Assembly: GCA_028866575.1 (NCBI GenBank)
Contig: JAGWHU010000001.1
Coordinates: forward strand, 197 to 64,196
DNA length: 64,000 bases
From: Candidatus Micrarchaeota archaeon
GTDB lineage: Archaea > Micrarchaeota > Micrarchaeia > Micrarchaeales > Micrarchaeaceae
Reading direction: 5' to 3'
This document shows positions 5,732 to 62,153 of the stretch, in pieces. The position numbers and the translations under genes are program-made. The notes beneath the pieces are model-generated. The model was not told where the DNA came from, ran no database searches, and was given only the letters and a program-made list of their open reading frames with translations. Each line of letters opens with the position of its first letter. Position 1 is the first letter of the stretch.

Positions 5732-8233
5732 ATGACGGATTCTTCTGTAAATGCCGAGAAAGTAGTAGTTGGAGATGAGGAGTACAAAAGGACATACGGG
5801 TTCAACGATTCGTTCGAATACAAGTTTAAGACAAAAAAGGGCCTGTCTGAGGAGATAGTCAGGGAGATTTCGGCAATGAAAAATGAGCCTGAGTGGATGC
5901 TGGAAAAGAGGCTTATAGGGTACAAGCAGTTTGTCAACAGGCCGACCCCGCAATGGGGTGGCAATCTCAATGAGATAGACTACAATGACATCTATTACTA
6001 CCTGAAGCCAACGGACAAGAAGGGCAACACCTGGGAATCTGTGCCCAAGGAGATAAAAGATACCTTCGACAAGCTCGGTATACCGGAAGCGGAAAGGAAG
6101 TTCTTTGCTGGAGCAGAGGCACAGTACGATTCTGAGGTAGTATATTCGCATATAAGGGAGGACCTTGCCAGAGATGGTGTCATATTCACAAGCACGGACG
6201 AAGCAGTTAAGAAGTATCCAGAGATTATGAAGAAATATTTTGGGACGATTATACCACCAACAGACAACAAGTTCGCAGCACTTAATACCGCAGTATGGAG
6301 CGGGGGATCGTTCATCTACGTCCCGAAAGGAGTAAAATTGAAGATGCCACTCCAGGCCTATTTCAGAATAAATTCTGAGAAGGCAGGTCAGTTTGAGAGA
6401 ACATTGATAATTGCAGATGAAGGAGCTGATGTTACATATATAGAAGGGTGCCTGCCTGCTGATGAATTAGTAAGCAAGGGAGATACTTTTGAGCCAATAG
6501 TGAATATAAACACAAATGACTCTGTTGTAACACACAATGGGACACATGAAAATGTAAGTAGATTGTTTGTGCACGAACATGAAGGGATAATGTATGAGAT
6601 AACACCCGAGTCTGGCTTTAACGGATTTAGATTAACAGGAGAGCATCCAGTGCTATGCATAAAAAGAAATGATGTTTTGGCCAAAAGGGCAAAAAGGGGC
6701 GATTGGCTACCTGAAGCTTCTACAAAATTGCTTTTGGATGCAGAACCTCAATTCATAAATGCGAATCAGTTAGATGTTGGCGACTTTTTGGTATATGTTG
6801 CACCTACTTTAAGAGAAGATGATGAATCATTAGATGAGGACCTACTTCAAATATTAGGTTTATATCTAGCAGAAGGCAGTATATCACAGAATAAAGCTTT
6901 AAGAAATATAAAATCAGTATCATTCAGCTTTGGTTATAGCAATAAAGAAGCTTCCATTGCCAAATCACTGCATTCTCTCCTTAATAAAAAAGGGTATAGA
7001 AGTTCCATATGCAGAGGTAAAGGTAAATACTACATAGTAAGTTCTTACTCAAAAGAATTAATTGAAATATGTGAAACTCATTGTGGAAATGGAGCCGCTA
7101 CAAAGAACTTATCATCAACGATAATGAAACTTCCACCAAAAAAACAAAAGATCCTCATAGATAATTATTGGAAAGGGGACGGTAGCATATATGTAAAATA
7201 TGGTAAAAGATTAATGAGAGCTGCAACGATAAGCAAAATACTAGCATTGCAGATACAGGAGATACTTGCGAGAAATGGAATATTTGCAAATCTAAATGTC
7301 AGAAAAGGATCTGATGATAAGATTTTAGGCAGAAAGATTACAAGAAAGGACCAGATAATAATAGAATATACAGAAGATAGGAATATTGGTGGAGTGAGGA
7401 GAAAAGGAAATTCCTTCTTTGTACCAATAAAGAAAATAGGCAAAAAAGATTTCAAGGGTCCTGTTTATAATTTCAGTGTGAATAAAGACGAATCTTATCT
7501 TGTTAGAGGATTTGCAGTACACAATTGCACAGCGCCGATATACATGAGTTCATCTCTGCATTCCGCAGTAGTGGAGCTCGTAGCCCATAAAAATGCGCAC
7601 ATAAGGTACGTTACCATCCAGAATTGGTCAAAGAACGTTTACAATCTTGTCACGCAGAGGGCCTTTGCCTATGAGAATGCACATGTCGAATGGATAGACG
7701 GCAATATTGGCAGCAAGCTCAACATGAAGTACCCCAGCGTGTTCCTGAAGGAAAGGGGCGCGAGGGGGGAAATAATGTCAATAGCGGTAGCGGGCCCTAA
7801 GCAGGTACAGGATTCTGGAGGTAAGATATATCACCTTGCTCCGGATACCACATCGCAGATAATATCGAAGAGCGTTTCGTCTGGCGATGGGATAACGACA
7901 TACCGCGGCTTGCTGCACATAGGCAAGAATGCGTCAAATGTAAAATCAACCGTGCGCTGCGATGCCCTGCTTCTGGATGATGAATCCAAGACCAACACGT
8001 TCCCATATATGGAGGTGAACAGGGACGACGCGACGATAACCCACGAGGCCAGCACGGGAAAAGTAGGCGAAGAGCAGCTTTTTTACCTGATGTCCAGGGG
8101 GCTCAGTGAGGAGGAGGCACTGACGACAGTGGTTCTTGGATTCCTGGACCCTCTTGCAAGGGCGCTTCCTTTGGAATATTCCCTTGAGTTGAGGAGATTA
8201 ATAAAGCTGGACATGTCAAATTCTGTGGGCTGA
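5732..8233 (+). CDS. sufB: Fe-S cluster assembly protein SufB, interrupted by a 359-aa intein
   Basis: 833 aa against ~470 for SufB. Conserved extein motif …TYIEG|C…intein…VHN|CTAPIY… (EGCTAP). Spliced product would be 474 aa. Confidence 0.85.
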   Translation: MTDSSVNAEKVVVGDEEYKRTYGFNDSFEYKFKTKKGLSEEIVREISAMKNEPEWMLEKRLIGYKQFVNRPTPQWGGNLNEIDYNDIYYYLKPTDKKGNTWESVPKEIKDTFDKLGIPEAERKFFAGAEAQYDSEVVYSHIREDLARDGVIFTSTDEAVKKYPEIMKKYFGTIIPPTDNKFAALNTAVWSGGSFIYVPKGVKLKMPLQAYFRINSEKAGQFERTLIIADEGADVTYIEGCLPADELVSKGDTFEPIVNINTNDSVVTHNGTHENVSRLFVHEHEGIMYEITPESGFNGFRLTGEHPVLCIKRNDVLAKRAKRGDWLPEASTKLLLDAEPQFINANQLDVGDFLVYVAPTLREDDESLDEDLLQILGLYLAEGSISQNKALRNIKSVSFSFGYSNKEASIAKSLHSLLNKKGYRSSICRGKGKYYIVSSYSKELIEICETHCGNGAATKNLSSTIMKLPPKKQKILIDNYWKGDGSIYVKYGKRLMRAATISKILALQIQEILARNGIFANLNVRKGSDDKILGRKITRKDQIIIEYTEDRNIGGVRRKGNSFFVPIKKIGKKDFKGPVYNFSVNKDESYLVRGFAVHNCTAPIYMSSSLHSAVVELVAHKNAHIRYVTIQNWSKNVYNLVTQRAFAYENAHVEWIDGNIGSKLNMKYPSVFLKERGARGEIMSIAVAGPKQVQDSGGKIYHLAPDTTSQIISKSVSSGDGITTYRGLLHIGKNASNVKSTVRCDALLLDDESKTNTFPYMEVNRDDATITHEASTGKVGEEQLFYLMSRGLSEEEALTTVVLGFLDPLARALPLEYSLELRRLIKLDMSNSVG
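6449..7525 (+). mobile_element. Intein with LAGLIDADG homing-endonuclease domain inside sufB
   Basis: Starts with Cys (CLPADELV…), ends …FAVHN followed by extein Cys. Two LAGLIDADG-type blocks (LLQILGLYLAEGSIS and ILIDNYWKGDGSIY). Insert is clearly more AT-rich than the flanking sufB. Confidence 0.8.
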
Positions 8234-8251: not shown

Positions 8252-9556
8252 GTGATAAATTTGCAGGATTACAAAAGTTTCATTAGGGAGGCTGTTGAGC
8301 AATATGGCAAGCTGCCGCAAGAAACAAGCGAGCTTTACAAGCACCATTACGTGAACATACCATTTGATCTTAAGGCATTCAGTGGCAACCAGCAGGACGG
8401 CGATCCCATAAAGAGTTCCGTAAACCTATGGGCGTCAAAGCTGGGGATAAGGTTCGGTCTGGCTTTGGGAAGCCTTGATTCAATAGTAAATAATGACCTT
8501 GTCAGAGTGGAGAGGACAGAGAGCCTTGACAGCTCTTTGATCAACAGCATGTTTAAAAGCGAAGAGGACAAATACGTTGCCTACATAAATTCCAATTCGG
8601 AAAGATCCGTTTTTGTAAACGTACCGGAAGGTAAATCGGCAAGCATCAACATAATGCTGCTAAATTCTTCCAAACCGCTCAATGCAAGAATATTCATTAA
8701 TGTAGGGGACGGCGCGAAGCTTAACGTGCTTGAATACTACGGCTCAGCCGCATCCATGCCCACCTCGCTTGGGGTAATTCATGAAGCAAGCATAGGTAAT
8801 GGCTCTGAGCTAGAGCTGAATGCCGTGCATAACGAGGATGCCAATACCTTATGCCTGGGCTTCTGCAAAAACAGGATAGGTGAGAGGTCCCATTTCAGGT
8901 TCAACTCATTTTACAACGGCTCATCGCACACGAGGATCAGGAACTCTGTAAGGGCAGACGGCAATGAAAGCAAGGTGGACGTAAATGAGGCGATATTCGG
9001 ATCCGCAAAACAGAAGTTCGACATAAACACATACATAATAAATGCTGCCAAGCACACCCATGCGAGCCTCGAATCCAAGGCTGCGCTAATGGACGAGTCT
9101 TTCTGCATAATGAAAGGGTTTGCAAAGATACTGAATGGCGCAGCCAAGGCAAGGTCTTACGTTCACGAAAGGGGCATACTGCTCGACAAGGGCGCTAAGG
9201 TTGACGGCCTGCCAGATATGTCCGTAGATGAAAATGACGTAAAGGCGACGCATTCTTCAGCCACTGCGCCTGTCGATCCCGAATCCGTTTTTTACCTCAT
9301 GTCGAAGGGAATTGGAGGGGAAGGGGTCAGGAAATTGCTTGTAACAGGATTCTTTGCGGAGAGCATTTCAAGGATAGGCAATCCCCTAATGAGGGAAATC
9401 TCGATGTCTTTGATAAACAGCAAGCTCGCGGAAAGGAATTACGGGAGCATGCCGAGCATGGACACGAGGAACATTTGGGTGGGATTGGGAGGAGCCCAGG
9501 ATGCCCCGGAATCCGACATGTTTAAAGGGCACTACAAGTATAGGGGAACCGAATAG
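8252..9556 (+). CDS. sufD: Fe-S cluster assembly protein SufD
   Basis: 434 aa. GTG start. C-terminal region homologous to SufB/SufD (…HSSATAPVDPESVFYLMSKGI…). Follows sufB. Confidence 0.75.
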   Translation: MINLQDYKSFIREAVEQYGKLPQETSELYKHHYVNIPFDLKAFSGNQQDGDPIKSSVNLWASKLGIRFGLALGSLDSIVNNDLVRVERTESLDSSLINSMFKSEEDKYVAYINSNSERSVFVNVPEGKSASINIMLLNSSKPLNARIFINVGDGAKLNVLEYYGSAASMPTSLGVIHEASIGNGSELELNAVHNEDANTLCLGFCKNRIGERSHFRFNSFYNGSSHTRIRNSVRADGNESKVDVNEAIFGSAKQKFDINTYIINAAKHTHASLESKAALMDESFCIMKGFAKILNGAAKARSYVHERGILLDKGAKVDGLPDMSVDENDVKATHSSATAPVDPESVFYLMSKGIGGEGVRKLLVTGFFAESISRIGNPLMREISMSLINSKLAERNYGSMPSMDTRNIWVGLGGAQDAPESDMFKGHYKYRGTE

Positions 9557-9564
9557 GCGATAAC

Positions 9565-9876
9565 ATGATGACTGACTATGAGAGGGTCGTAAAGAGCTTC
9601 ATACCTGCTTTCAGGCTGAAGGCAGCAAAGATTATGCTCAAGGAATATGGAATAAAGCAGCAGCAGGCTGCAGTTATCTTAGGGACGACGCAGGCCGCAA
9701 TAAGCAAATACCTGAAGGAAAATCCAGGAAAATACGAAAATATCAAGATAGATTCAAAATCCTTGAGGGATTTTGTTGAAAGAATGAAAGAGAACAACGA
9801 GCATGAGGGACAAAAGGTAATGTGCAACGTATGCCAGAGCAACAAGAAGTTCGATTGCGCTTTTATAGTTAAATGA
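9565..9876 (+). CDS. small HTH transcriptional regulator with C-terminal Cys cluster, embedded in the suf operon
   Basis: 103 aa. HTH-like QQQAAVILGTTQAAISKYL. C-terminal C-x2-C-x7-C (CNVCQSNKKFDC). Confidence 0.5.
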   Translation: MMTDYERVVKSFIPAFRLKAAKIMLKEYGIKQQQAAVILGTTQAAISKYLKENPGKYENIKIDSKSLRDFVERMKENNEHEGQKVMCNVCQSNKKFDCAFIVK

Positions 9877-9885
9877 AGTGGTTAG

Positions 9886-10626
9886 ATGATGCTGGAAATA
9901 AAGGATCTGCATGTAAGCGTGGAAGGCAAGGAGATAATAAAGGGGCTCAACCTCAGGATGAAGCAGGGGGAGACGCACGTGATCATGGGGCCTAACGGCT
10001 CTGGAAAGAGCACGCTTGCAAGGACCATAATGGGGCACCCGAAATCCGTAGTCACGAAGGGGGACATACTCGTAGACAATCAGAGCATCCTGGGCCTGAC
10101 TACTGACAGGCGTGCAAAGTTGGGGCTTTTCATGCAATTCCAGAATCCCGTAGAAGTCGAGGGCGTCGGGTTCATCAATTTCCTCCACCTTGCGAAGCAG
10201 TCTTCAGGCGATAGCGCAGTAAGCACAAAGGACTTTATGAAGGACATAAAGAGCAACATAAGCGAGCTGAAGATGGGCGAGGATTTCCTCGGAAGGTCCT
10301 TAAACCAGGGATTCTCCGGAGGCGAAAAGAAAAAGGCGGAAGTGCTGCAGCTATCGATACTGAAGCCCAAGATAGCGATCCTTGACGAGCCGGATTCGGG
10401 GCTTGACATAGACGCGATAAAGGTTGTATCGAATTCAGTGAACAATCTTGCGGAAAGGATTGACTTGGGGTTGCTCATAATAACCCACTACAGCAGGATA
10501 CTTTCGTTCATAAAGCCGCAGGTTGTGCACGTCATGGTGGACGGCAATATAGTTGCGGAAGGGGGGAACGAGCTCATAGAAAAGCTTGAAAAAGAGGGCT
10601 ACAATACATATATAGATCCTAAATAG
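9886..10626 (+). CDS. sufC: Fe-S cluster assembly ATPase SufC
   Basis: 246 aa. Walker A GPNGSGKST. ABC signature FSGGEKKK. Walker B ILDEPDSGLD. Confidence 0.85.
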   Translation: MMLEIKDLHVSVEGKEIIKGLNLRMKQGETHVIMGPNGSGKSTLARTIMGHPKSVVTKGDILVDNQSILGLTTDRRAKLGLFMQFQNPVEVEGVGFINFLHLAKQSSGDSAVSTKDFMKDIKSNISELKMGEDFLGRSLNQGFSGGEKKKAEVLQLSILKPKIAILDEPDSGLDIDAIKVVSNSVNNLAERIDLGLLIITHYSRILSFIKPQVVHVMVDGNIVAEGGNELIEKLEKEGYNTYIDPK

Positions 10627-10627
10627 T

Positions 10628-11905
10628 GTGAAAATGGCGGAGAGCATAAAGTACTCAAAAAATGAATTCAAGGTCGAAAATATAAGGGCTGATTTCCCGA
10701 ACCTGAAGGTGGAAATGAACGGGAAACCCCTTGTTTATCTTGACAGCGCGGCAACCTCGCAAAGGCCGCGGCAGGTACTTGAGGCAATGGACGGCTACTA
10801 CAAGACCTACAATGCAAACATACACCGCGGAATATACAGGATTGCGGAAAAGGCAACGGAGGAGTACATAGATTCCAAAAACAAGGTTGCAAAGTTCATA
10901 AACGGAAGCTCAATTGAGGAGATAGTATACGTAAGGAACGCAACGGAGGCCATAAACCTCGTGGCGCTTTCATGGGGCAACATGAACATAGAAAAGGAGG
11001 ACCACATACTCATATCCGAGATGGAGCACCATAGCAACATGGTCCCTTGGATGCTGCTTGCAAAGAGGAAGGGCGCTTCGCTCGACTACATACCGCTTGA
11101 CAGGACCAACAGCAAACTGGACATGGCCGGATTCAATAAGATGCTGGACAAAAATCCGAAGATAGTTGCAGTTACGCATGCCTCGAACGTGCTAGGCACT
11201 GTCAACGACGTAAAGGAGATAACGAAAAAGGCACACAAGAAAGGCGCAAAGGTCCTGATCGACGGCGCGCAGTCTGTGCCGCACATGAAAGTTGACGTTA
11301 GAGAAATAGATTCTGACTTTTTCGCCTTCTCCGCGCACAAGATGCTAGGCCCGACCGGGCTCGGGGTTCTGCATGCAAAGGCCGAGATACTCAATGGCAT
11401 GGATCCGGTTATCGGAGGAGGGGACATGATAAAGAGCGTAAAATACGATTCCTGCAGCTGGAACGACCTGCCGTGGAAGTTCGAGGCTGGGACCCCGAAT
11501 ATAGCAGGTGCAATAGGGCTTGGGGCTGCAATAGACTATCTAGAATATTTCGGAATGGATAGCATAAGGGAGCATGAAAAGGAGCTTACAGCATACGCGC
11601 TTGAGAAACTCACGAAGGTGAAAAATGTCACCATATACGGCCCCGGAATCAAGGATCTTGATGCCAGGCTCGGGGTCATAGCATTCAGCATCGACAAAGT
11701 GCATCCGCATGATGTGGCGCAGGTACTTGATGCAGAAGGGGTAGCGATAAGGGCAGGGCATCATTGCGCCATGCCGCTGGTGACCCAAAAGCTCGGGGTT
11801 CCAGCTTTGTCAAGGATGAGTTTCTACATCTATAACAAGGAATCAGAAATAGATGCGGCAGTGGAGGCATTGGAGAAGGTCAAAAAGGTATTCAAGGTTG
11901 TGTGA
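10628..11905 (+). CDS. sufS: cysteine desulfurase SufS (class V aminotransferase)
   Basis: 425 aa. PLP-lysine motif FSAHKMLGPTGLG. C-terminal RAGHHCA active-site Cys motif. Confidence 0.8.
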   Translation: MKMAESIKYSKNEFKVENIRADFPNLKVEMNGKPLVYLDSAATSQRPRQVLEAMDGYYKTYNANIHRGIYRIAEKATEEYIDSKNKVAKFINGSSIEEIVYVRNATEAINLVALSWGNMNIEKEDHILISEMEHHSNMVPWMLLAKRKGASLDYIPLDRTNSKLDMAGFNKMLDKNPKIVAVTHASNVLGTVNDVKEITKKAHKKGAKVLIDGAQSVPHMKVDVREIDSDFFAFSAHKMLGPTGLGVLHAKAEILNGMDPVIGGGDMIKSVKYDSCSWNDLPWKFEAGTPNIAGAIGLGAAIDYLEYFGMDSIREHEKELTAYALEKLTKVKNVTIYGPGIKDLDARLGVIAFSIDKVHPHDVAQVLDAEGVAIRAGHHCAMPLVTQKLGVPALSRMSFYIYNKESEIDAAVEALEKVKKVFKVV

Positions 11906-11909
11906 TTGC

Positions 11910-12314
11910 ATGCCGATAGACATTTATGCGGAGGAGATAATAGCACATTACGAGAAGCCCCACAACATAGGGGAAATTCAGAACCCCAGCATCAGCTTCC
12001 ATAACAACAATCCGCTGTGCGGGGACGACCTGACAATGTACTTGATGATAGATGGGAACAAGGTGCAGGATGTGAAGTTCAAAGGCACGGGATGTGCGAT
12101 AAGCATGGCAAGCGCGAGCATGCTTACTGATTTTGCAAAAGGGAAGACCCTAAAGGAGATAGAGGACATGAACGTGGATACCATAATAGATCTTTTAGGG
12201 ATAGATCCGGGCCCTGCCAGGCTCAAGTGCGCTACGCTGTCCTTACGAACGCTGAAAGAGGCCACGTTCTTGTATGAGCACAAGGAAGTGGACAGGGAAA
12301 CAAAGGAGCTTTAG
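11910..12314 (+). CDS. sufU: SufU/IscU-like Fe-S scaffold protein
   Basis: About 134 aa from the ATG at 11910 (the ORF-track start at 11853 overlaps sufS). NPLCGDDL…GTGCAIS motifs of the NifU-N/IscU family. Confidence 0.7.
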   Translation: MPIDIYAEEIIAHYEKPHNIGEIQNPSISFHNNNPLCGDDLTMYLMIDGNKVQDVKFKGTGCAISMASASMLTDFAKGKTLKEIEDMNVDTIIDLLGIDPGPARLKCATLSLRTLKEATFLYEHKEVDRETKEL

Positions 12315-20282: not shown

Positions 20283-20419
20283 TGGGGTCGCTGGGATTTG
20301 AACCCAGATTTGCAGGTTACTTCATATTTTTCTGTATTCCAGATCTTAATCATCGCGTTTGCTCAATATACATATAAACATCTGGAGCCTGCCGCGCTGC
20401 CAAGTTACGCTACAACCCC
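20283..20419 (-). tRNA. tRNA-Trp (anticodon CCA) with a ~63-nt intron at the canonical 37/38 position
   Basis: Acceptor GGGGTTG/CGACCCC. D-arm GCGT-loop-GCGC. Anticodon stem GCAGG/CCTGC with loop CTCCAGA interrupted by the intron. T-arm CTGGG-TTCAAAT-CCCAG. Confidence 0.7.
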
Positions 20420-36337: not shown

Positions 36338-37123
36338 GTGGTTTGCTTCGTTTATTCCAAGGACGTCACATCATCAAACATAGCCAGCTCGCTGAAGGCA
36401 GAGTTGGGCCTTGAGGAAGCAGAAAGTTTCCATGGAATGAGGAGTTTCGTGGCCGACAGGATAAGGATGATAGAGATAAGTGACGCGCTCGTGCATGCGG
36501 AGTCGCTTGACGGCATACTTGACGACACGGCGATATTCCTGAGCAGGCATAGCAGCAGCATGGGCATAGCCTCGTTTACAGTACATGCGGAGGGAAACTG
36601 GTCATCTGAGAATCCGCTTGGCGGAAGGCCAAAATCCCTGAGCGTTTCATCGCCAGTGGGCATGATTAAGGTGCTTGGTGCCATAGGCAGGATGAACATT
36701 TCTGGCATGGGCACCACGTATGAGGCCACGCATCACGGCCCGTATCTTGATAATCCGTCGTTTTTTGTCGAGCTGGGGGGAAACGAGGACATGATGAAAA
36801 GCGTGGCGCATGCCAAGCTCATCGCTTCTGCGATAGCAGTTTCGCTGGATGAAGAGCCAGAGTACGACAAAATAGCGGTAGGGATAGGGGGCATGCACTA
36901 CCCTGAAAAATTCACAAGACTCGCGCTTGAGGGCAAATATGCATTCTCTCACATAATGCCCAAATACCACATAGCGTGCATCGACATGCTCGGCAGCGCG
37001 TTTGAGAGGAGTGACATCGGTGCCGAAATTGCAGTAATAGAATGGAAAAGCATAAAAGCGGTTGGAAGAGAAATGATAGTTAGAGAACTTAATCGGTTAG
37101 GTATAGATTATGCGAAAGTATAA
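36338..37123 (+). CDS. dtdA: archaeal-type D-aminoacyl-tRNA deacylase (DtdA)
   Basis: 261 aa. N-terminus …YSKDVTSSNIASSL… resembles the DtdA family signature. Confidence 0.55.
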   Translation: MVCFVYSKDVTSSNIASSLKAELGLEEAESFHGMRSFVADRIRMIEISDALVHAESLDGILDDTAIFLSRHSSSMGIASFTVHAEGNWSSENPLGGRPKSLSVSSPVGMIKVLGAIGRMNISGMGTTYEATHHGPYLDNPSFFVELGGNEDMMKSVAHAKLIASAIAVSLDEEPEYDKIAVGIGGMHYPEKFTRLALEGKYAFSHIMPKYHIACIDMLGSAFERSDIGAEIAVIEWKSIKAVGREMIVRELNRLGIDYAKV

Positions 37124-39116
37124 TCTCTTTAATTACGCGACCTTTGCAGTTTTTGCAGCGCTGATGCTGGTAAATGTAGCGTCAGCGCAGTACTGGTTCC
37201 AGAGCGGAGCAAGGGGCTCGGGAGGCGCGGTTTTAAACAGCGGCGCGGCGATTTCCATACAGACGGTTTACCAGAATGCCACTAACGGATCCCTGGGTTT
37301 CTGGGTGGGGGAGGACCTGTCAAACGGGGCATTCATACAGGTAGGCTATGAGATAACAAATGCTACAGGATACTATTCTTCCTCGTGCATGAATTCGACG
37401 AAGAGCGTTTACCTGCATGCCGGCGTTCCCACCTGGTTCTGGGAATATTTCGGCCCTGGAAGCACTAACGACTCCTTCTGCGGCGGGATAGGACCAAATG
37501 GATCCGCTGGGCCCGGGGGCTCATTCAACGAGTATTCATTCAGGTCTTCGGGCAACGTATGGAATGCGTATTTCAACGACCAGCTGATAGGGACAATAAA
37601 TCTCGGTACTGACAATTCCGGACACAATTCGCCGTCGGCTTTTGCAGAATATGCAGATACCAACACCAACAAATGGCCGCTTAAAAACGTCACGTTCAGG
37701 GACCTGCTGTATTACATAGGGAACAGCTCCAGGCTTGTCCCTGAAGGCTATGCATCCATAGGGTACGGGGTTTCGAGCCTTACCGCGCTGACCAATCCGT
37801 ACAGCGTCGCAGAGGTGAAAAACTACTCGAACTATTTCGTCGTAGGCTCAAACGTCCAGCGCGTCAAGAACTCCGCCGTATTGTGGAAGACTGGATACTC
37901 CGTAGCTGTGTATTCCGCCTATGGTAACATAACAGGAGCAGGAAACTACATAGCATATTCCCAGGTGCCGCTGTATGCGCCTCCAACAGTGAACGTAAGC
38001 AGCGGAGTAAGGGAGGTTTTCAACGGATGGACAGGCACCGGATTCAGCTCGTATACGGGCATACAGGAGAAGGTCTACATAACGCTTTACGACAACGTCA
38101 CCGAAACTGCAAAATGGACGAGGCAGTACTACCTCAACGCGACTTCGCAGTACGGCAGGCTTTCCGGAAACGGGTGGTACGATGCAAACAGCACAGCCTA
38201 CCTGTCGTTGAATTCAAACATCATAATGATAGGCCAGGGCTCGCGTGCGGTATTTGAAGGATGGAGCAACAACGTCTCTTCGGGCAGGACAAGCATATAT
38301 CTTGACAGGCCAAGAGAGGTGCATGCGGTATGGATGATACAATACTACCTCAACGCGACTTCGCAGTACGGCAATGCCATCGGGAGCGGGTGGTACGATG
38401 CAAACAGCACAGCGACTGTATCCTTGCAAAAGAGCTTTGAGCCGATAAACCAGACGGAGAGGCTTGCATTCAAAAACTGGAGCAACGGGGCGAAGTCCAA
38501 CACCACGAAAGTAGTAGTCTCCTCGCCGATGAGGCTTTCCGCGGTTTTTGAAAGGCAGTACCTAGTGGGCCTTGTTCCGGAGGACTCTAGCGGCAACGCC
38601 CTTAGCAACGTGAGTTATTACAATGTCAGCGGCCAGCAAAGCAGCTCCAACAGCATATTCGCATTTCCGGGCTCGCCGTACAACATAGAATACATATACT
38701 ACAAGGGAGCAATAGTGACGGCAAACCACAAATTCAGCATAGATTCCCCGTCGATAGTGACGTTCAAGGTGCCGGTATACGACATAATTGTAAATACGCA
38801 GAGCATATTCAGGACTCCGGTAAATGCAAGCATGAATATAACCTTTAAGAACAATACAAGCATAAATACGTATTCAGGGAATTCCGGCAGCAGGGTCTTC
38901 AACGACGTGCCGTATGGATATGCAACAGGATATGCAGAGTATTTCGGGGTGCGGCAGAGCATCAATCTGGAATACGGGGTTGACTCATACCTTACTTTCT
39001 TAACGGCATCGCTTATTGAATTCATATTTGCTGGCGTCGTGCTCATAGTTGCGATTGCAAAAGCGGCATCGTATTATGAAAACAGGCGCTCCGCCGGGCG
39101 CAGCAGGGGCAGGTAA
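37110..39116 (+). CDS. large secreted Asn/Ser/Tyr-rich surface (S-layer-like) glycoprotein with internal domain duplication and C-terminal TM anchor
   Basis: 668 aa. Signal peptide. More than 40 N-x-S/T sequons. Two ~73-aa repeats (QYYLNATSQYG…GWYDANSTA…). C-terminal hydrophobic anchor plus RRSAGRSRGR. Confidence 0.6.
   Translation: MRKYNLFNYATFAVFAALMLVNVASAQYWFQSGARGSGGAVLNSGAAISIQTVYQNATNGSLGFWVGEDLSNGAFIQVGYEITNATGYYSSSCMNSTKSVYLHAGVPTWFWEYFGPGSTNDSFCGGIGPNGSAGPGGSFNEYSFRSSGNVWNAYFNDQLIGTINLGTDNSGHNSPSAFAEYADTNTNKWPLKNVTFRDLLYYIGNSSRLVPEGYASIGYGVSSLTALTNPYSVAEVKNYSNYFVVGSNVQRVKNSAVLWKTGYSVAVYSAYGNITGAGNYIAYSQVPLYAPPTVNVSSGVREVFNGWTGTGFSSYTGIQEKVYITLYDNVTETAKWTRQYYLNATSQYGRLSGNGWYDANSTAYLSLNSNIIMIGQGSRAVFEGWSNNVSSGRTSIYLDRPREVHAVWMIQYYLNATSQYGNAIGSGWYDANSTATVSLQKSFEPINQTERLAFKNWSNGAKSNTTKVVVSSPMRLSAVFERQYLVGLVPEDSSGNALSNVSYYNVSGQQSSSNSIFAFPGSPYNIEYIYYKGAIVTANHKFSIDSPSIVTFKVPVYDIIVNTQSIFRTPVNASMNITFKNNTSINTYSGNSGSRVFNDVPYGYATGYAEYFGVRQSINLEYGVDSYLTFLTASLIEFIFAGVVLIVAIAKAASYYENRRSAGRSRGR
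38127..38197 (+). repeat. 71-bp direct repeat, copy 1 (near-identical to 38343-38413) within the surface-protein gene
   Basis: tactacctcaacgcgacttcgcagtacggca…ggtggtacgatgcaaacagcacagc recurs 216 bp downstream. Only a short central stretch differs. Confidence 0.8.
38343..38413 (+). repeat. 71-bp direct repeat, copy 2
   Basis: See copy 1. Confidence 0.8.
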
Positions 39117-42469: not shown

Positions 42470-44899
42470 TTACGCAACCTTTTCATCCACGTATTTGGTT
42501 ATTGTCTGTGCGTCCACTATCGTTGCACCGTCATCAAGCCTCATCAGCCTCACGCCGCTAGCTGCCCTTCCGGTCACCCTTATGTCTTCAACAGGGAACG
42601 TTATGGATATGCCCTTTGAGCTGATTAGTATCACGTTGTCGCTGTTGGCGACTTTCAGGGCCTTTACCACGTATCCAGTCTTCTCTTTCGTCTTGAGGTT
42701 TATGACGCCCTTGCCGCCCCTCGCCTGCGTCCTGTACCTGTCTAGCTCTGTTACCTTCCCGTACCCCTTTTCCGTTATCGATGCTATCAGGTCGCTGCCG
42801 TTGGCTGAAAGGACGTTTACAACCCTGTCCTCGGGATTGAGCCTTATGCCCCTTACGCCATGCGCGATCCTGCTCATCGGCCTTATGCCCTCTTCCCTGA
42901 ACCTGAGCGCTTTGCCCCTTCTGGTAGCTATGAAAAGCTCAGAATTGCCGTTGGACAGGCATACATCAGAAAGCTCGTCGCCATCTCGGAGAGGCATGGC
43001 CATTATGCCGTTCGCCCTCGGCCTGGAGAACTTTTCGGCCCGCACCCTCTTTATCTTGCCCTTTGCCGTTATGAACGTAAGGTAAGATTTCTCGAAGACC
43101 CTTGTGTTTATTATGCTGCCTACCTTTTCCCCTTCGCTGAACTTCACAAGGTTTACCGCTGCCTTCCCTATCCCGTATCTTCCCTCTTCCGGGACCATGT
43201 AGGCCTTGAGCCAGTACGCCCTTCCCTTGTTTGACAATACAAGGAGATAGTCCTTGAGCATGCAGGATACTATCTGCTTGACGAAGTCGCCCTCCTTCAG
43301 CTGTATGGCTATGACGCCCTTGCCGCCCCTTTCCTGGGATCTATAGACCTTTGTTGAAATCCTCTTCATGTAGTTATTGTTGGTGAGGATGATTGTGGCT
43401 TCCTCGTCCTTTATGAGATCCTCGTTGTCGAATTCCTTTTCCGGGACGTTCTTGTCTATGTCGGTGCGCCTGTCCCTGCCGTATTTCCCCTTTATGTACG
43501 CAGTCTCCTGCTCGATTATATCGTATACCTTTTTATCGTCCTCAAGAATCGCCTTCAGGCTGGATATGCTCGCTGTCAGCTCTCCCCTTTCCGTTTCAAG
43601 CGAGCTAGTCTCGAGGTTGGTAAGCTTGCTCAGCTTCATGTCGAGTATGGCGTTTGCCTGCCTCTCGCTTATCATGTATTTTTCCATGAGCGTGGACCTT
43701 GCGGACTTCAGGTCCTCGCTGGCCTTGATTGCAGATATCACGCCGTCTATGTCGCGTACCGCGACAAGCAATCCCTCGACTATGTGAAGCCTGTCAGAAG
43801 CTATGCTTAGATCGTATTGCGTCCTTTTCGTTATGACGCTTATCCTGTGCTCTATGAATATCTTGATGAACTGCCTCAGGTTCAGGGTCACAAGGTTGTT
43901 CCCTATAACTGCTATGTTCATCACAGGCATGGAGGTCTCAAGCTGAGTGTGCCTGTATAGGGTGTTGAGCACGACATCAAGGTCGGCGTCCTGCCTTAGC
44001 TCTATGACTATCCTTATACCCTCCTTCCCGCTTTCGTCCCTAAGGTCGGATATGCCGGTTATCCTCTTGGTCTTCACAAGGTTTGCTATAGCCTCGACCA
44101 TCGAGGCCTTGTTTACGGTGTATGGTATTTCGGTTATTATTATCGCGCTCCTGTTCTTTATCTTCTCTATGCTGTGCTTGCCCCTTATCGTCACCGTCCC
44201 CCTCCCGGTTATGTAAGATGATACAAGCGCGTTGTTGTAGAATACAGTGCCGCCGGTAGGGAGGTCCGGCCCCAGAACGTACTGCAGGAGCTCCTCAGAG
44301 GTTATTTCGTGGTTCTTGATATAGGCGATTATTGCGTCGCACAGCTCGGAAAGGTTATGTGGCATTATGTTAGTGGCTACCCCTACAGCTATGCCCGAGG
44401 CCCCGTTGAGCAGGAGATGGGGAAGCTTCGTAGGCAGAAGTAGCGGCTCCTCCTCCGTATTGTCAAAGTTCGGCACAAATGTAACTGATTTCTTTTCCAG
44501 GTCCGCAAGCATCTCGTCGGAGATTTTGCTAAGCCTGACTTCCGTGTACCTTTGCGCGGCAGGCGGGTCCCCGTCAATCGATCCCATGTTCCCCTGCCCT
44601 TCCACGAGCATGTGGTTCATGGAGAAGTTCTGCGCCATCCTTACGAGCGTGTCGTATACTGCCATGTCCCCGTGAGGATGGTATTTGCCCATGCATTCGC
44701 CGACTATCCTGGCGCTTTTCTTAGTTGGCTGGTCATGGGTGTTGTTGATCTTGTACATCGTGTAGAGTATCCTCCTCTGCGCCGGCTTCAGGCCGTCCCT
44801 TGCGTCGGGAAGCGCCCTGCCGACAATTACGCTCATCGCGTAATCGATGTAGCTTGACTGCATCTCTTTCTCAATATCGGAATCTATTACTTCCTCCAT
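42470..44899 (-). CDS. gyrA: DNA gyrase subunit A
   Basis: 809 aa. …GKYHPHGD… and active-site region IMPHNLSE… (Tyr region). C-terminal beta-pinwheel repeats. Confidence 0.9.
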
Positions 44900-44902
44900 G
44901 TT

Positions 44903-46840
44903 TCACACGTCCAAGAACGATACCTCGCTGGAATGCTCCTCGAGGAATTTCCTCCTCTGCTCCACGTCAATCCCCATGAGTATTGAGAATATCGCATCCG
45001 CTATCCTCGCGTCCTTTATCGTTATCTTCTTGAGCATCCTGTTTTCCGGGTTCATTGTGGTTTCCCAGAGCTGCTCCGGATTCATCTCTCCGAGACCCTT
45101 GTAGCGCTGCACTGACGCCTTGCCATCGTACTGCTGCATCGCCTTGTTGAGCTCGGCGTCGGAATAAAGGTATTTTGATTCCTTGCCCTTTGTAACCCTG
45201 TAGAGGGGAGGCTGGGCTATGTATATGTTGCCCTTTTCTATAAGGGGGCGCATGTACCTGTAGAAAAATGTGAGCAGCAATGTCCTTATGTGGCTGCCGT
45301 CGACATCCGCATCAGTCAGGAGTATTATCTTGTTGTACCTTAGGTTTTCCGGATTGAACGATTCCCTTATGCCTACCCCAAAGGCGGTTACCATAAGATG
45401 AAGTTCCGAATTGTTGAATATTTTTTCTTCAGATGCCTTTTCAACGTTGAGCACCTTTCCCCTTAACGGGAGTATGGCCTGGAAGTGCCTGTCCCTGCCC
45501 TGCTTGCTGGAGCCGGCCGCGCTGACGCCCTCGACTATGAATATCTCGGACTTGGAGGGATCGCTTTCCGTGCAGTCGGCGAGCTTGCCGGGCAGTACGG
45601 AACCCTCGAACAGGCTCTTCTTCCTTGCCAGCTCCTTGGCCCTCCTTGCTGATTCCCTTGCCTCTGCAGTACTTGTTATCTTCCTTATTATGCTAGCAGC
45701 CTCTGCAGGATTCTCCTCCAGATAGGTCGATAGTATGGAATATAAAGTGGTGTCGACCACGCTTTTTACGGTGCTGTTACCTAGCTTTTCCTTTGTCTGC
45801 CCTTCGAATTCGGGGTTTTGCATCGATACTGACAAAACCGCTATAAGGCCCTCCCTTGTGTCCTCTCCCTCGATGTTAACCTGCTGCTTTATTTTTTTGC
45901 TGCTCTTCTGCAGGTAGTTGGTGATTGCACGTGTAAGTGCAGTCCTGAATCCAATGACGTGCGTTCCCCCTTCCGGAGTCCTTATCTTGTTTACGAACGA
46001 TAGGAGGTCCTCGGAATAGCTGTTGACGTACTGCATTCCAAGTTCTATGTTTATCGAATCTGCATGCTTGCTCACGATTATCTTGCTTGTAAGCGGCTCC
46101 TTGCCATCCCTTATAAACTCGAGGAAATCAGATATCCCTTTTTCTGATGTGTATTCTGATATTTTCTCGTTTGTGGGGTCCCTCTTGTCTATGAGCACTA
46201 TCCTTATCCCCGGATTTAGATACCCGAGCTCCTTGAGCCTTTCGTTGAGCTCTATCGAGTCGAAGCTCTTAGCAGAGAATATTGTAGTGTCTGGCTTGAA
46301 CCTTATCGTAGTGCCGGTATCGCTTGTTTCGCCCATCACCTCTAGCGGCTTTGATACCGCGCCCTTGCTGAATGTCTCCCTGTACATTTTCCCGTTTCTT
46401 TTCACAGTAACTTCGGTGAACTCCGACAGCGAGTTCACGACAGTGAGCCCGACCCCGTGCAGTCCTCCGGAGACCTTGTATATTTTGTTGTTGAACTTTG
46501 CGCCTGTGTGAAGGGAGGTCATTATTACCTCAAGCGCAGACTTCCCCTCTTTTTCCATAATGTCAACAGGTATTCCCCTGCCGTTGTCGCTTATTTCTGC
46601 AACGTCCACATCCTGGTCCCGCGTGAGCACTATTTTTATCTCCTTTGCATAGCCTGCCTGCGCCTCGTCCACCGCGTTGTCCACTATCTCGTAGAGCAGG
46701 TGAAGGTAGCCCTTGCTGCTCGTTGAGCCTATGTACATTGCGGGCCTTTTCCGCACGCCCTCGGTGCCCGAAAGCGCCACTATATCCTTTGCGCTATACT
46801 CGTTAGTTTCCATGCTGCTACCACTGGATTTAGAAGTCAT
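44903..46840 (-). CDS. gyrB: DNA gyrase subunit B
   Basis: 645 aa. GHKL ATPase motifs (…LHHLVYEIVDNAVDE…, GLHGVG). TOPRIM EGVSAAGS…DGSHI. Confidence 0.9.
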   Translation of the reverse strand: MTSKSSGSSMETNEYSAKDIVALSGTEGVRKRPAMYIGSTSSKGYLHLLYEIVDNAVDEAQAGYAKEIKIVLTRDQDVDVAEISDNGRGIPVDIMEKEGKSALEVIMTSLHTGAKFNNKIYKVSGGLHGVGLTVVNSLSEFTEVTVKRNGKMYRETFSKGAVSKPLEVMGETSDTGTTIRFKPDTTIFSAKSFDSIELNERLKELGYLNPGIRIVLIDKRDPTNEKISEYTSEKGISDFLEFIRDGKEPLTSKIIVSKHADSINIELGMQYVNSYSEDLLSFVNKIRTPEGGTHVIGFRTALTRAITNYLQKSSKKIKQQVNIEGEDTREGLIAVLSVSMQNPEFEGQTKEKLGNSTVKSVVDTTLYSILSTYLEENPAEAASIIRKITSTAEARESARRAKELARKKSLFEGSVLPGKLADCTESDPSKSEIFIVEGVSAAGSSKQGRDRHFQAILPLRGKVLNVEKASEEKIFNNSELHLMVTAFGVGIRESFNPENLRYNKIILLTDADVDGSHIRTLLLTFFYRYMRPLIEKGNIYIAQPPLYRVTKGKESKYLYSDAELNKAMQQYDGKASVQRYKGLGEMNPEQLWETTMNPENRMLKKITIKDARIADAIFSILMGIDVEQRRKFLEEHSSEVSFLDV

Positions 46841-50927: not shown

Positions 50928-51037
50928 GGGTCCATAGCTCAGCCTGGTCAGAGCGGCTGGCTCTTAACCAGTAGGTCGGGGGTCCAAAGTAAAATTTTGG
51001 CTAGTGCTGAATTTTAGAGGAAATCCCCCTGGACCCG
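50928..51037 (+). tRNA. tRNA-Lys (anticodon CUU) with a ~35-nt intron inside the T-loop (non-canonical position)
   Basis: Acceptor GGGTCCA/TGGACCC. D-arm GCTC…GAGC. Anticodon arm GCTGG-CTCTTAA-CCAGT. T-stem GGGGG/CCCCC encloses 42 nt instead of 7. Confidence 0.65.
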
Positions 51038-61637: not shown

Positions 61638-62153
61638 CTAGATTTTCTCACATATTGTATTTTCTATTAAATATTTTATATCCTGCTCGTTTTCGGTGTT
61701 TACGATCTGGTCCTTTGCGAGGGGGCCTATCTTGTTTCCTGATGGTAATATTATTTCCGGTATGTCCTTGATTGATTTGAGTTCGGATACGATGTGCTTC
61801 TCTTGTATCGTAAAATCAAGCCTTTCCGATTTTACTGTTTGCAGCAGCCTGTTATAGAATTCTGTTTCGTTACTACTTATAGGTTGCGGTAATTGTTTGT
61901 TATAGGCAACATAAATAAGTATTTTTTGTTTGCGCTTCTCGAAGAAGTCATTCAGAAGTTTAATTGAAATTTCCTTCGTGTAGGTGCTGCCGGAATCATA
62001 GTTTATGTCATTTATGAATTTTATGGAATCTTCGTAGAATGTTTTCGGCACCAATAACAACTGGTTGGTCTGTTTTTCTTTCTGGAATGCCTGCCAAAGA
62101 TAATCATATGTTACGTTGTCACTCATCATAGCACCTACACACCACAATTCCAC
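61638..62153 (-). CDS. GINS subunit (Gins51/Sld5-like)
   Basis: 171 aa. N-terminal …YDYLWQAFQKEKQTNQLLLVPKTFYED… matches archaeal GINS N-termini. AT-rich gene. Confidence 0.45.
   Translation of the reverse strand: MELWCVGAMMSDNVTYDYLWQAFQKEKQTNQLLLVPKTFYEDSIKFINDINYDSGSTYTKEISIKLLNDFFEKRKQKILIYVAYNKQLPQPISSNETEFYNRLLQTVKSERLDFTIQEKHIVSELKSIKDIPEIILPSGNKIGPLAKDQIVNTENEQDIKYLIENTICEKI

Follow-up and report, generated by a model that had tools for sequence, protein, structure and literature searches.

The sufB gene of a Candidatus Micrarchaeota archaeon (contig JAGWHU010000001.1 of assembly GCA_028866575.1), which lies in the 64,000-nucleotide stretch of DNA analysed here and referred to as the window, very likely harbours a canonical class 1 intein, into which a LAGLIDADG homing endonuclease of the double-motif type is embedded. 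The putative intein occupies nucleotides (nt) 6449–7525, directly before the equivalent of Cys254 of Escherichia coli SufB, appears to be allelic to the SufB (Pps1) intein family of Mycobacterium tuberculosis, and was probably imported into its present host. We estimate the probability of this reading at roughly 85%.

The sufB precursor gene (nt 5732–8233, stop codon counted; plus strand, as are all parts of sufB described below) is an open reading frame (ORF) of 833 amino acids (aa; 93.6 kDa), whose product matched the SufB equivalog TIGR01980 (682.9 bits; cutoff 346.4) and the Pfam families SUFBD_core (9e-77) and SufBD_N. The insert corresponds to protein residues 240–598 and is in frame, with a length of 359 aa (40.3 kDa) from Cys1 to Asn359. 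It is preceded by a 239-aa N-extein (nt 5732–6448), which ends in …ADVTYIEG and can be aligned to E. coli SufB (PDB 5AWF chain A) as far as G253, and followed by a C-extein of 235 aa plus the stop codon (nt 7526–8233), which begins with Cys+1 (nt 7526–7528). The sequence thus passes from …ADVTYIEG to CLPADE…, and from …GFAVHN to CTAPIYM. When the insert is removed, a 474-aa SufB remains, of which residues 34–474 align with 5AWF_A (E 3e-117); the YFRIN strand and the equivalents of C254 and C405 are kept in the exteins. The insertion is exact, as intein-less SufB proteins of 474–479 aa read …YIEG/CTAPIY… (the slash marks the insertion point here and below), with nothing gained or lost. An earlier note on this DNA, made from the sequence, had described an 833-aa SufB with an in-frame insert that starts with Cys, ends with His-Asn and is followed by the extein Cys, and both the ORF and the junctions agree with it; the frameshift that it feared to have missed does not exist, since the frame is intact over nt 5732–8233, without an internal stop codon. 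The 833-aa protein is 100% identical to a deposited protein from a metagenome-assembled genome of Candidatus Micrarchaeota (P0001). Furthermore, two independent assemblies of other sequencing runs (L083 and L084) showed 100% nucleotide identity over 6.5 and 4.6 kb, respectively, spanning both junctions, and an assembly chimera could therefore be ruled out as the source of the sufB-intein structure.

The insert belongs to a family of inteins that we defined by the pattern CLP…GF[AV]VHN and the site …Y[IV]EG/C[TS]AP, and that was found at the same site in 97 of the 120 top-ranking SufB homologues, within a narrow length range of 351–361 aa. The residues expected to carry out splicing are invariant in all 97 members: the block A nucleophile Cys1 (nt 6449–6451), T63 and H66 of the TxxH motif in block B (GFRLTGEHPVLC; nt 6623–6658), and N341, H358 and N359 in blocks F and G (GPVYNFSVNKDESYLVRGFAVHN; nt 7457–7525). 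In the alignment, H66 corresponds to the block-B His67 of the M. tuberculosis SufB intein (numbering of PMC8891592). Block G is complete, with the penultimate H358, the terminal N359 and Cys+1, and C[TS]AP directly follows the intein in every member, as part of the family definition. The NCBIfam model intein_Cterm matched the C-terminal blocks with 20.5 bits (cutoff 15.6), and Pfam Intein_splicing matched the insert scanned alone with 36.1 bits (threshold 35.8). All 27 aligned family members matched both Intein_splicing and LAGLIDADG_3.

In the window's intein, Pfam LAGLIDADG_3 (7e-12) matched in two stretches, and the two motifs read LGLYLAEGS and IDNYWKGDGS, as anticipated by the two LAGLIDADG blocks of the earlier note. 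The first LAGLIDADG helix (…LLQILGLYLAEGS; nt 6836–6886) carries the acidic residue E142 (nt 6872–6874) and corresponds to residues 130–142 of the model described below, and the second (…KILIDNYWKGDGS; nt 7136–7192) carries D244 (nt 7178–7180) and corresponds to residues 230–244. Among the 97 family inteins, the first position is occupied by E in 93, D in two, and G or K in two, and the second by D in 95 and N or A in two. A sequence search of PDB with the intein (E ≤ 1) returned only PI-PkoII (4e-07), its sole intein match at the sequence level, and two chance FGF2 hits; as no SufB intein chain was found in this search, a predicted model and Foldseek were used. The AlphaFold2 model, for which 27 members of the family were used, reached a predicted local distance difference test score (pLDDT) of 93.5 and a predicted template modelling score (pTM) of 0.91, and consists of a β-rich splicing domain split by two αββαββα units; as predicted, the structure is that of a HINT fold combined with a pseudo-dimeric LAGLIDADG fold. 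The top PDB matches in Foldseek were the inteins TliVMA, PI-SceI, PI-PkoII, PhoVMA and PI-PfuI (E 1e-18 to 1e-13; template modelling (TM) score 0.6–0.73; probability 1.00), in which a HINT splicing domain is likewise split by a double-motif LAGLIDADG endonuclease, followed by free LAGLIDADG enzymes such as I-DmoI and I-Tsp061I (target TM 0.59–0.68). The solved inteins differ from the window's in that they reside in other host proteins at other insertion sites, share only 11–16% identity with it, and are mostly larger (361–537 aa), with additional DNA-recognition regions. The Pps1 intein of M. gastri (PI-MgaI) is reportedly an active endonuclease.

The closest experimentally studied counterpart is the M. 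tuberculosis SufB intein, whose precursor sequence and domain borders were taken from the supplement of PMC8891592. The two inteins align end to end (residues 1–359; 34% identity; BLASTP E 4e-57), with colinear splicing and endonuclease domains, and the inteins (359 aa) as well as the C-exteins (235 aa) of the two proteins are equally long; the alignment to known SufB inteins that the earlier note had suggested thus succeeded over the full length. The insertion site is the same, since the junctions read …SYVHYVEG/CLPAGEL…GFAVHN/CTAPIYKS in M. tuberculosis and …ADVTYIEG/CLPADEL…GFAVHN/CTAPIYMS in the window, and both inteins have Cys1, TxxH, the block-F Asn, His-Asn and Cys+1. By this comparison, the window's intein belongs, as an allelic member, to the SufB (Pps1) family of M. 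tuberculosis, which is widespread and has already been studied experimentally. Canonical splicing of the M. tuberculosis intein has been demonstrated in vitro (PMC8891592), the assembly of SufBCD in that organism depends on intein splicing (PMC8529194), and oxidative and nitrosative stress inhibit splicing through a Cys1–Cys+1 disulfide, according to the summary of Huet 2006 and Topilina 2015 in PMC8529194. The two systems differ in their hosts, an actinobacterium and a DPANN archaeon (Micrarchaeota), respectively, in the N-extein residue −5, which is Thr in the window and the His studied in M. tuberculosis, and in the suf operon, which here includes sufU and a small helix-turn-helix (HTH)-like gene, unlike that of M. 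tuberculosis.

The family is far from rare. Relatives were confirmed in at least 345 stretches in a scan that covered each species with one genome, a number that is a lower bound because the scan relied on two peptide patterns only. Out of 1.84 billion representative clusters, the family profile matched 1,467 at E ≤ 1e-30, a count that rose to 15,406 at E ≤ 0.001. The archaeal hosts include Micrarchaeota, Marsarchaeota, Nitrososphaerales, Thermoplasmata (with the cultured Acidiplasma aeolicum), ARMAN-4 and Nanoarchaeota, and the bacterial hosts include Dojkabacteria, Peregrinibacteria, Bipolaricaulota, Chloroflexi, Planctomycetia and Gammaproteobacteria, among others. The A. aeolicum intein (L055) belongs to the same family and sits at the same site, with EG/C…VHN/C[TS]AP junctions and 46% identity to the window's, while its host represents another archaeal phylum and its length is shorter (337 against 359 aa). 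An archaeal SufB intein is also already present in the literature, that of Ferroplasma acidarmanus (PMC8891592). The earlier note, which placed SufB inteins in a few bacteria and archaea, thus strongly understated their distribution, and the follow-up that it recommended is not specially merited by a member of the very well known Pps1 family, which is common in archaea and bacteria from metagenomes.

Inteins typically interrupt their hosts at catalytic residues, and this one is no exception. Its Cys+1 aligns with Cys254 of E. coli SufB (5AWF_A), generally accepted as the residue of the scaffold that first takes up the persulfide (PMC13228346), and a precursor that has not been spliced should therefore lack activity. 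Different states of this site were observed in relatives. Six others of the 120 best SufB homologues have an empty site, five of which are intein-less proteins of 474–479 aa (P0081, P0108, P0111, P0118 and P0120), whereas P0112, the sixth, has an intein elsewhere in the protein. Four of the intein-less proteins (P0081, P0111, P0118 and P0120) are 90–93% identical to the window's protein over the aligned extein stretch. At the nucleotide level, the empty site of L081 (GCTGATGTAACGTATATAGAAGGA/TGCACAGCTCCGATATACATGAGC) and the rejoined junction of the window agree in 44 of 48 nt. In P0023 (L085/L086), whose exteins showed the highest identity in the direct pairwise comparisons (94.7%, BLASTP), the same site is filled by an intein of another family, only 29% identical to the window's. 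This second family, CF[TVI]KGTE…VHN, occurs in Micrarchaeota and shares the insertion point, Cys1, His-Asn and Cys+1 with the window's intein, as well as a LAGLIDADG endonuclease in its full-length forms. It differs in the length of these forms (387–394 aa) and in the existence of mini forms of 156–159 aa without an endonuclease (P0035 and P0072), and it is likewise AT-rich relative to its host, with a GC content at third codon positions (GC3) of 0.34 against 0.58.

SufB proved to be an intein hotspot in relatives, in which four sites were observed: WSGG/SFIY (P0072), YIEG/CTAP, GNIG/SKLN (P0112) and STVR/CDAL. At the last of these, the intein (STVR/C…HN/CDALL) lies directly before the Cys405 equivalent in P0035 and P0039, and the equivalent position in the window is nt 7958; two of the +1 cysteines correspond to C254 and C405, which are functional cysteines in the E. 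coli protein. Among these relatives (P0035, P0039, P0072 and P0112), SufB proteins reach lengths of 1237–1239 aa. No further inteins were found within the window with the family hidden Markov model and four other SufB inteins as queries.

The base composition of the intein departs sharply from that of its host gene. At 0.346, its GC content lies below that of the N-extein (0.446) and of the C-extein (0.503), in agreement with the AT-richness reported in the earlier note. The deficit sits at third codon positions (GC3 0.262 against 0.563 in the exteins), positions 1 and 2 being nearly alike, and recurs at four-fold degenerate sites (24% against 53% GC; Fisher p = 4e-7). Across 99 sliding 359-codon windows over the other genes of the window, GC3 never fell below 0.524 (mean 0.644, standard deviation 0.045), which places the intein at z = −8.5. 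Amino-acid composition and drift to the host's mutational equilibrium were rejected as main causes, because the deficit sits at third positions and the intein's GC3 of 0.26 is lower than the GC content of the window's non-genic DNA (0.44). Among 77 loci with the family, across which intein GC otherwise follows host GC, the GC and GC3 deficits of the window's intein are the largest.

Among the 22 nearest relatives, the pairwise identities of exteins and inteins are uncorrelated (Spearman 0.06), and in some pairs, such as P0001–P0010, the inteins are more alike than the exteins (72% against 69%). The empty and otherwise filled sites, the uncorrelated identities, the spread of the family over both archaea and bacteria and the foreign composition all speak for a mobile element. 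Taken together, they suggest that this copy probably entered its host by horizontal transfer, fairly recently, from a donor of lower GC content. The earlier note had considered the AT-richness consistent with horizontal acquisition, and GC3, the four-fold sites, the 77-locus comparison and the identity comparisons all point the same way. In eight pairwise comparisons, the proportion of nonsynonymous differences (pN) was 0.14–0.29 in the endonuclease domain and 0.12–0.27 in the splicing domain, and that of synonymous differences (pS) was 0.68–0.94; as the latter is saturated in every comparison, the values do not provide a proper ratio of nonsynonymous to synonymous substitution rates (dN/dS) and say only qualitatively that pN is far below pS. 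This pattern indicates purifying selection on both the splicing and the endonuclease domains, and the conserved length and acidic residues of the family likewise suggest that the endonuclease is still under selection.

On this basis, translation would yield a 93.6-kDa precursor, in which an N-S acyl shift at Cys1, helped by Thr63 and His66 of block B, would generate a thioester. Attack by Cys+1 would produce a branched intermediate, cyclisation of Asn359, helped by His358, would free the 40.3-kDa intein, and an S-N shift would leave a 53.4-kDa mature SufB able to assemble with SufC and SufD. The freed intein would then act as a site-specific endonuclease that cuts intein-less sufB at …TATATAGAAGG/TGCACAGC…, and repair of the cut allele would copy the intein in (homing).

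Several points weigh against this interpretation or limit it. Both splicing and DNA cleavage are deduced from sequence, a structural model and homology. When the whole protein was scanned, Pfam Intein_splicing scored 33.2 bits, slightly below the threshold of 35.8. Of the splicing blocks A, B, F and G named in the earlier note, A, B and G are present as expected, whereas F is present in a non-canonical form (VYNFSV…SYLV), with an invariant Asn (N341) in place of the usual Asp and without the block-F His. The splicing-proficient M. tuberculosis SufB intein has the same arrangement (VYNL…SYL, likewise with Asn for Asp), and the variant is therefore a family trait and not a defect; the Asp and His of block F are not an absolute requirement for inteins. 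Regarding the import, family inteins are slightly AT-richer than their hosts in 60 of the 77 loci (mean GC deficit 3 points), so that the deficit observed here may partly be a property of the element and not a mark of recency. Moreover, the nearest inteins are only 72–76% identical to the window's, which makes 'recent' a relative term.

Among the alternatives, we regard as rather unlikely that the insert splices but its endonuclease is inactive, making it a fixed, vertically inherited passenger that is kept because its imprecise loss would kill an essential gene. Endonuclease activity of the window's copy is judged from its sequence and model, the acidic LAGLIDADG residue has been lost in a few family members (2 of 97 at E142 and 2 of 97 at D244), and the endonuclease-free mini forms of the second family (156–159 aa in P0035 and P0072) show that endonuclease decay does occur at the SufB site; in addition, L082, which is among the closest relatives with the same synteny, has the intein too. 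The window's copy, in contrast, retains both E142 and D244 as well as the full double αββαββα fold, and its endonuclease domain is as constrained as its splicing domain (pN 0.14–0.29 against saturated pS). Vertical inheritance also fits poorly with the uncorrelated similarities of inteins and exteins and with empty or otherwise filled sites in hosts with 93–95% identical exteins, and the strongly foreign GC3 speaks against a long residence. A failure of the insert to act as an intein at all, be it as a non-splicing insertion domain, in a pseudogenised sufB or through a chimeric metagenome assembly, is extremely improbable. The source is indeed a metagenome-assembled genome, and the composition of the insert is sharply unlike that of its flanks; however, the frame is intact, every catalytic residue of the family is present, residues conserved in SufB, the equivalents of C254 and C405 among them, are retained in the exteins, the two independent assemblies are identical in nucleotide sequence over both junctions, and hundreds of homologues share the architecture.

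By analogy with M. tuberculosis, the intein might also have been co-opted as a post-translational switch, beside or instead of its mobile role, with oxidation or persulfidation of Cys1/Cys+1 halting splicing, an idea that we consider rather doubtful. In the precursor, the +1 nucleophile is the equivalent of the persulfide acceptor Cys254 and has Cys1 as its neighbour, so splicing could be gated by oxidation or persulfidation of the cysteine pair. The intein shares its family and site with that of M. tuberculosis, for which PMC8529194 summarises an inhibition by oxidative and nitrosative stress, and the family has been kept near full length in many phyla. Close relatives, on the other hand, live without the intein (P0081, P0108, P0111, P0118 and P0120) or with an unrelated-looking one (P0023), which argues against an essential regulatory role tied to it, and its distribution and composition resemble those of a selfish mobile element. 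If the switch were real, SufB maturation in these DPANN archaea would hinge on redox or sulfur status, a dependence already proposed for M. tuberculosis, and the near-full-length retention of the family across many phyla would be accounted for.

The remainder of the suf operon (nt 8252–12314) follows sufB on the plus strand, in the same gene order as in the relatives L082 and L085. It consists of sufD (8252–9556), an ORF of 103 aa (9565–9876), sufC (9886–10626), sufS (10628–11905) and a sufU/NifU_N-type gene (11853–12314), all of which were assigned by Pfam except the 103-aa ORF between sufD and sufC, which had no significant Pfam hit. The N-terminal part of this ORF resembles a helix-turn-helix and its C-terminal part contains cysteines (CNVC…C), ORFs of similar size were found at the equivalent place in L082 (103 aa, with a weak HTH_3 match) and L085 (106 aa), and it is a candidate operon regulator. 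The sufU gene overlaps the end of sufS by approximately 50 nt when counted from its first ATG, and its real start probably lies more downstream.

Elsewhere in the window, Rfam identified a 137-nt transfer RNA (tRNA) at nt 20283–20419 on the minus strand (50.1 bits) that was missed by ARAGORN. It reads as a tRNA-Trp (anticodon CCA) with an intron of approximately 63 nt right after the anticodon, a position at which tRNA introns are common in archaea. A weak tRNA-like match of 59 nt at 50928–50986 (plus strand; 30.2 bits, threshold 29) may represent part of a tRNA or have arisen by chance. Two minus-strand ORFs without Pfam matches, at 829–1296 (155 aa; GC 0.357, GC3 0.34) and 61638–62153 (171 aa; GC 0.366, GC3 0.45), have unusually low GC for the window and may be foreign genes or no genes. 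The 668-aa ORF at 37110–39116 (plus strand) matched no Pfam family, its sole match being a weak, sub-cutoff one to a Listeria/Bacteroides-type repeat (TIGR02543). The genes gyrB (44903–46840) and gyrA (42470–44899) are adjacent on the minus strand and both intein-free, which indicates that DNA gyrase is present in this DPANN archaeon.

Taken as an intein, the element carries little weight, being one further member of a family that has been dissected biochemically in M. tuberculosis. The deposited entries name only 'SufB', or 'SufD family' in relatives, and the 833-aa length and low-GC core could mislead automated analyses. In closely related Micrarchaeota, the same site is empty, occupied by the window's family, occupied by the second family, or occupied by an endonuclease-free mini form of the latter. 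Such a multi-state site, together with at least four intein sites in SufB, offers natural material for studying the homing cycle and the competition between inteins in uncultured organisms.

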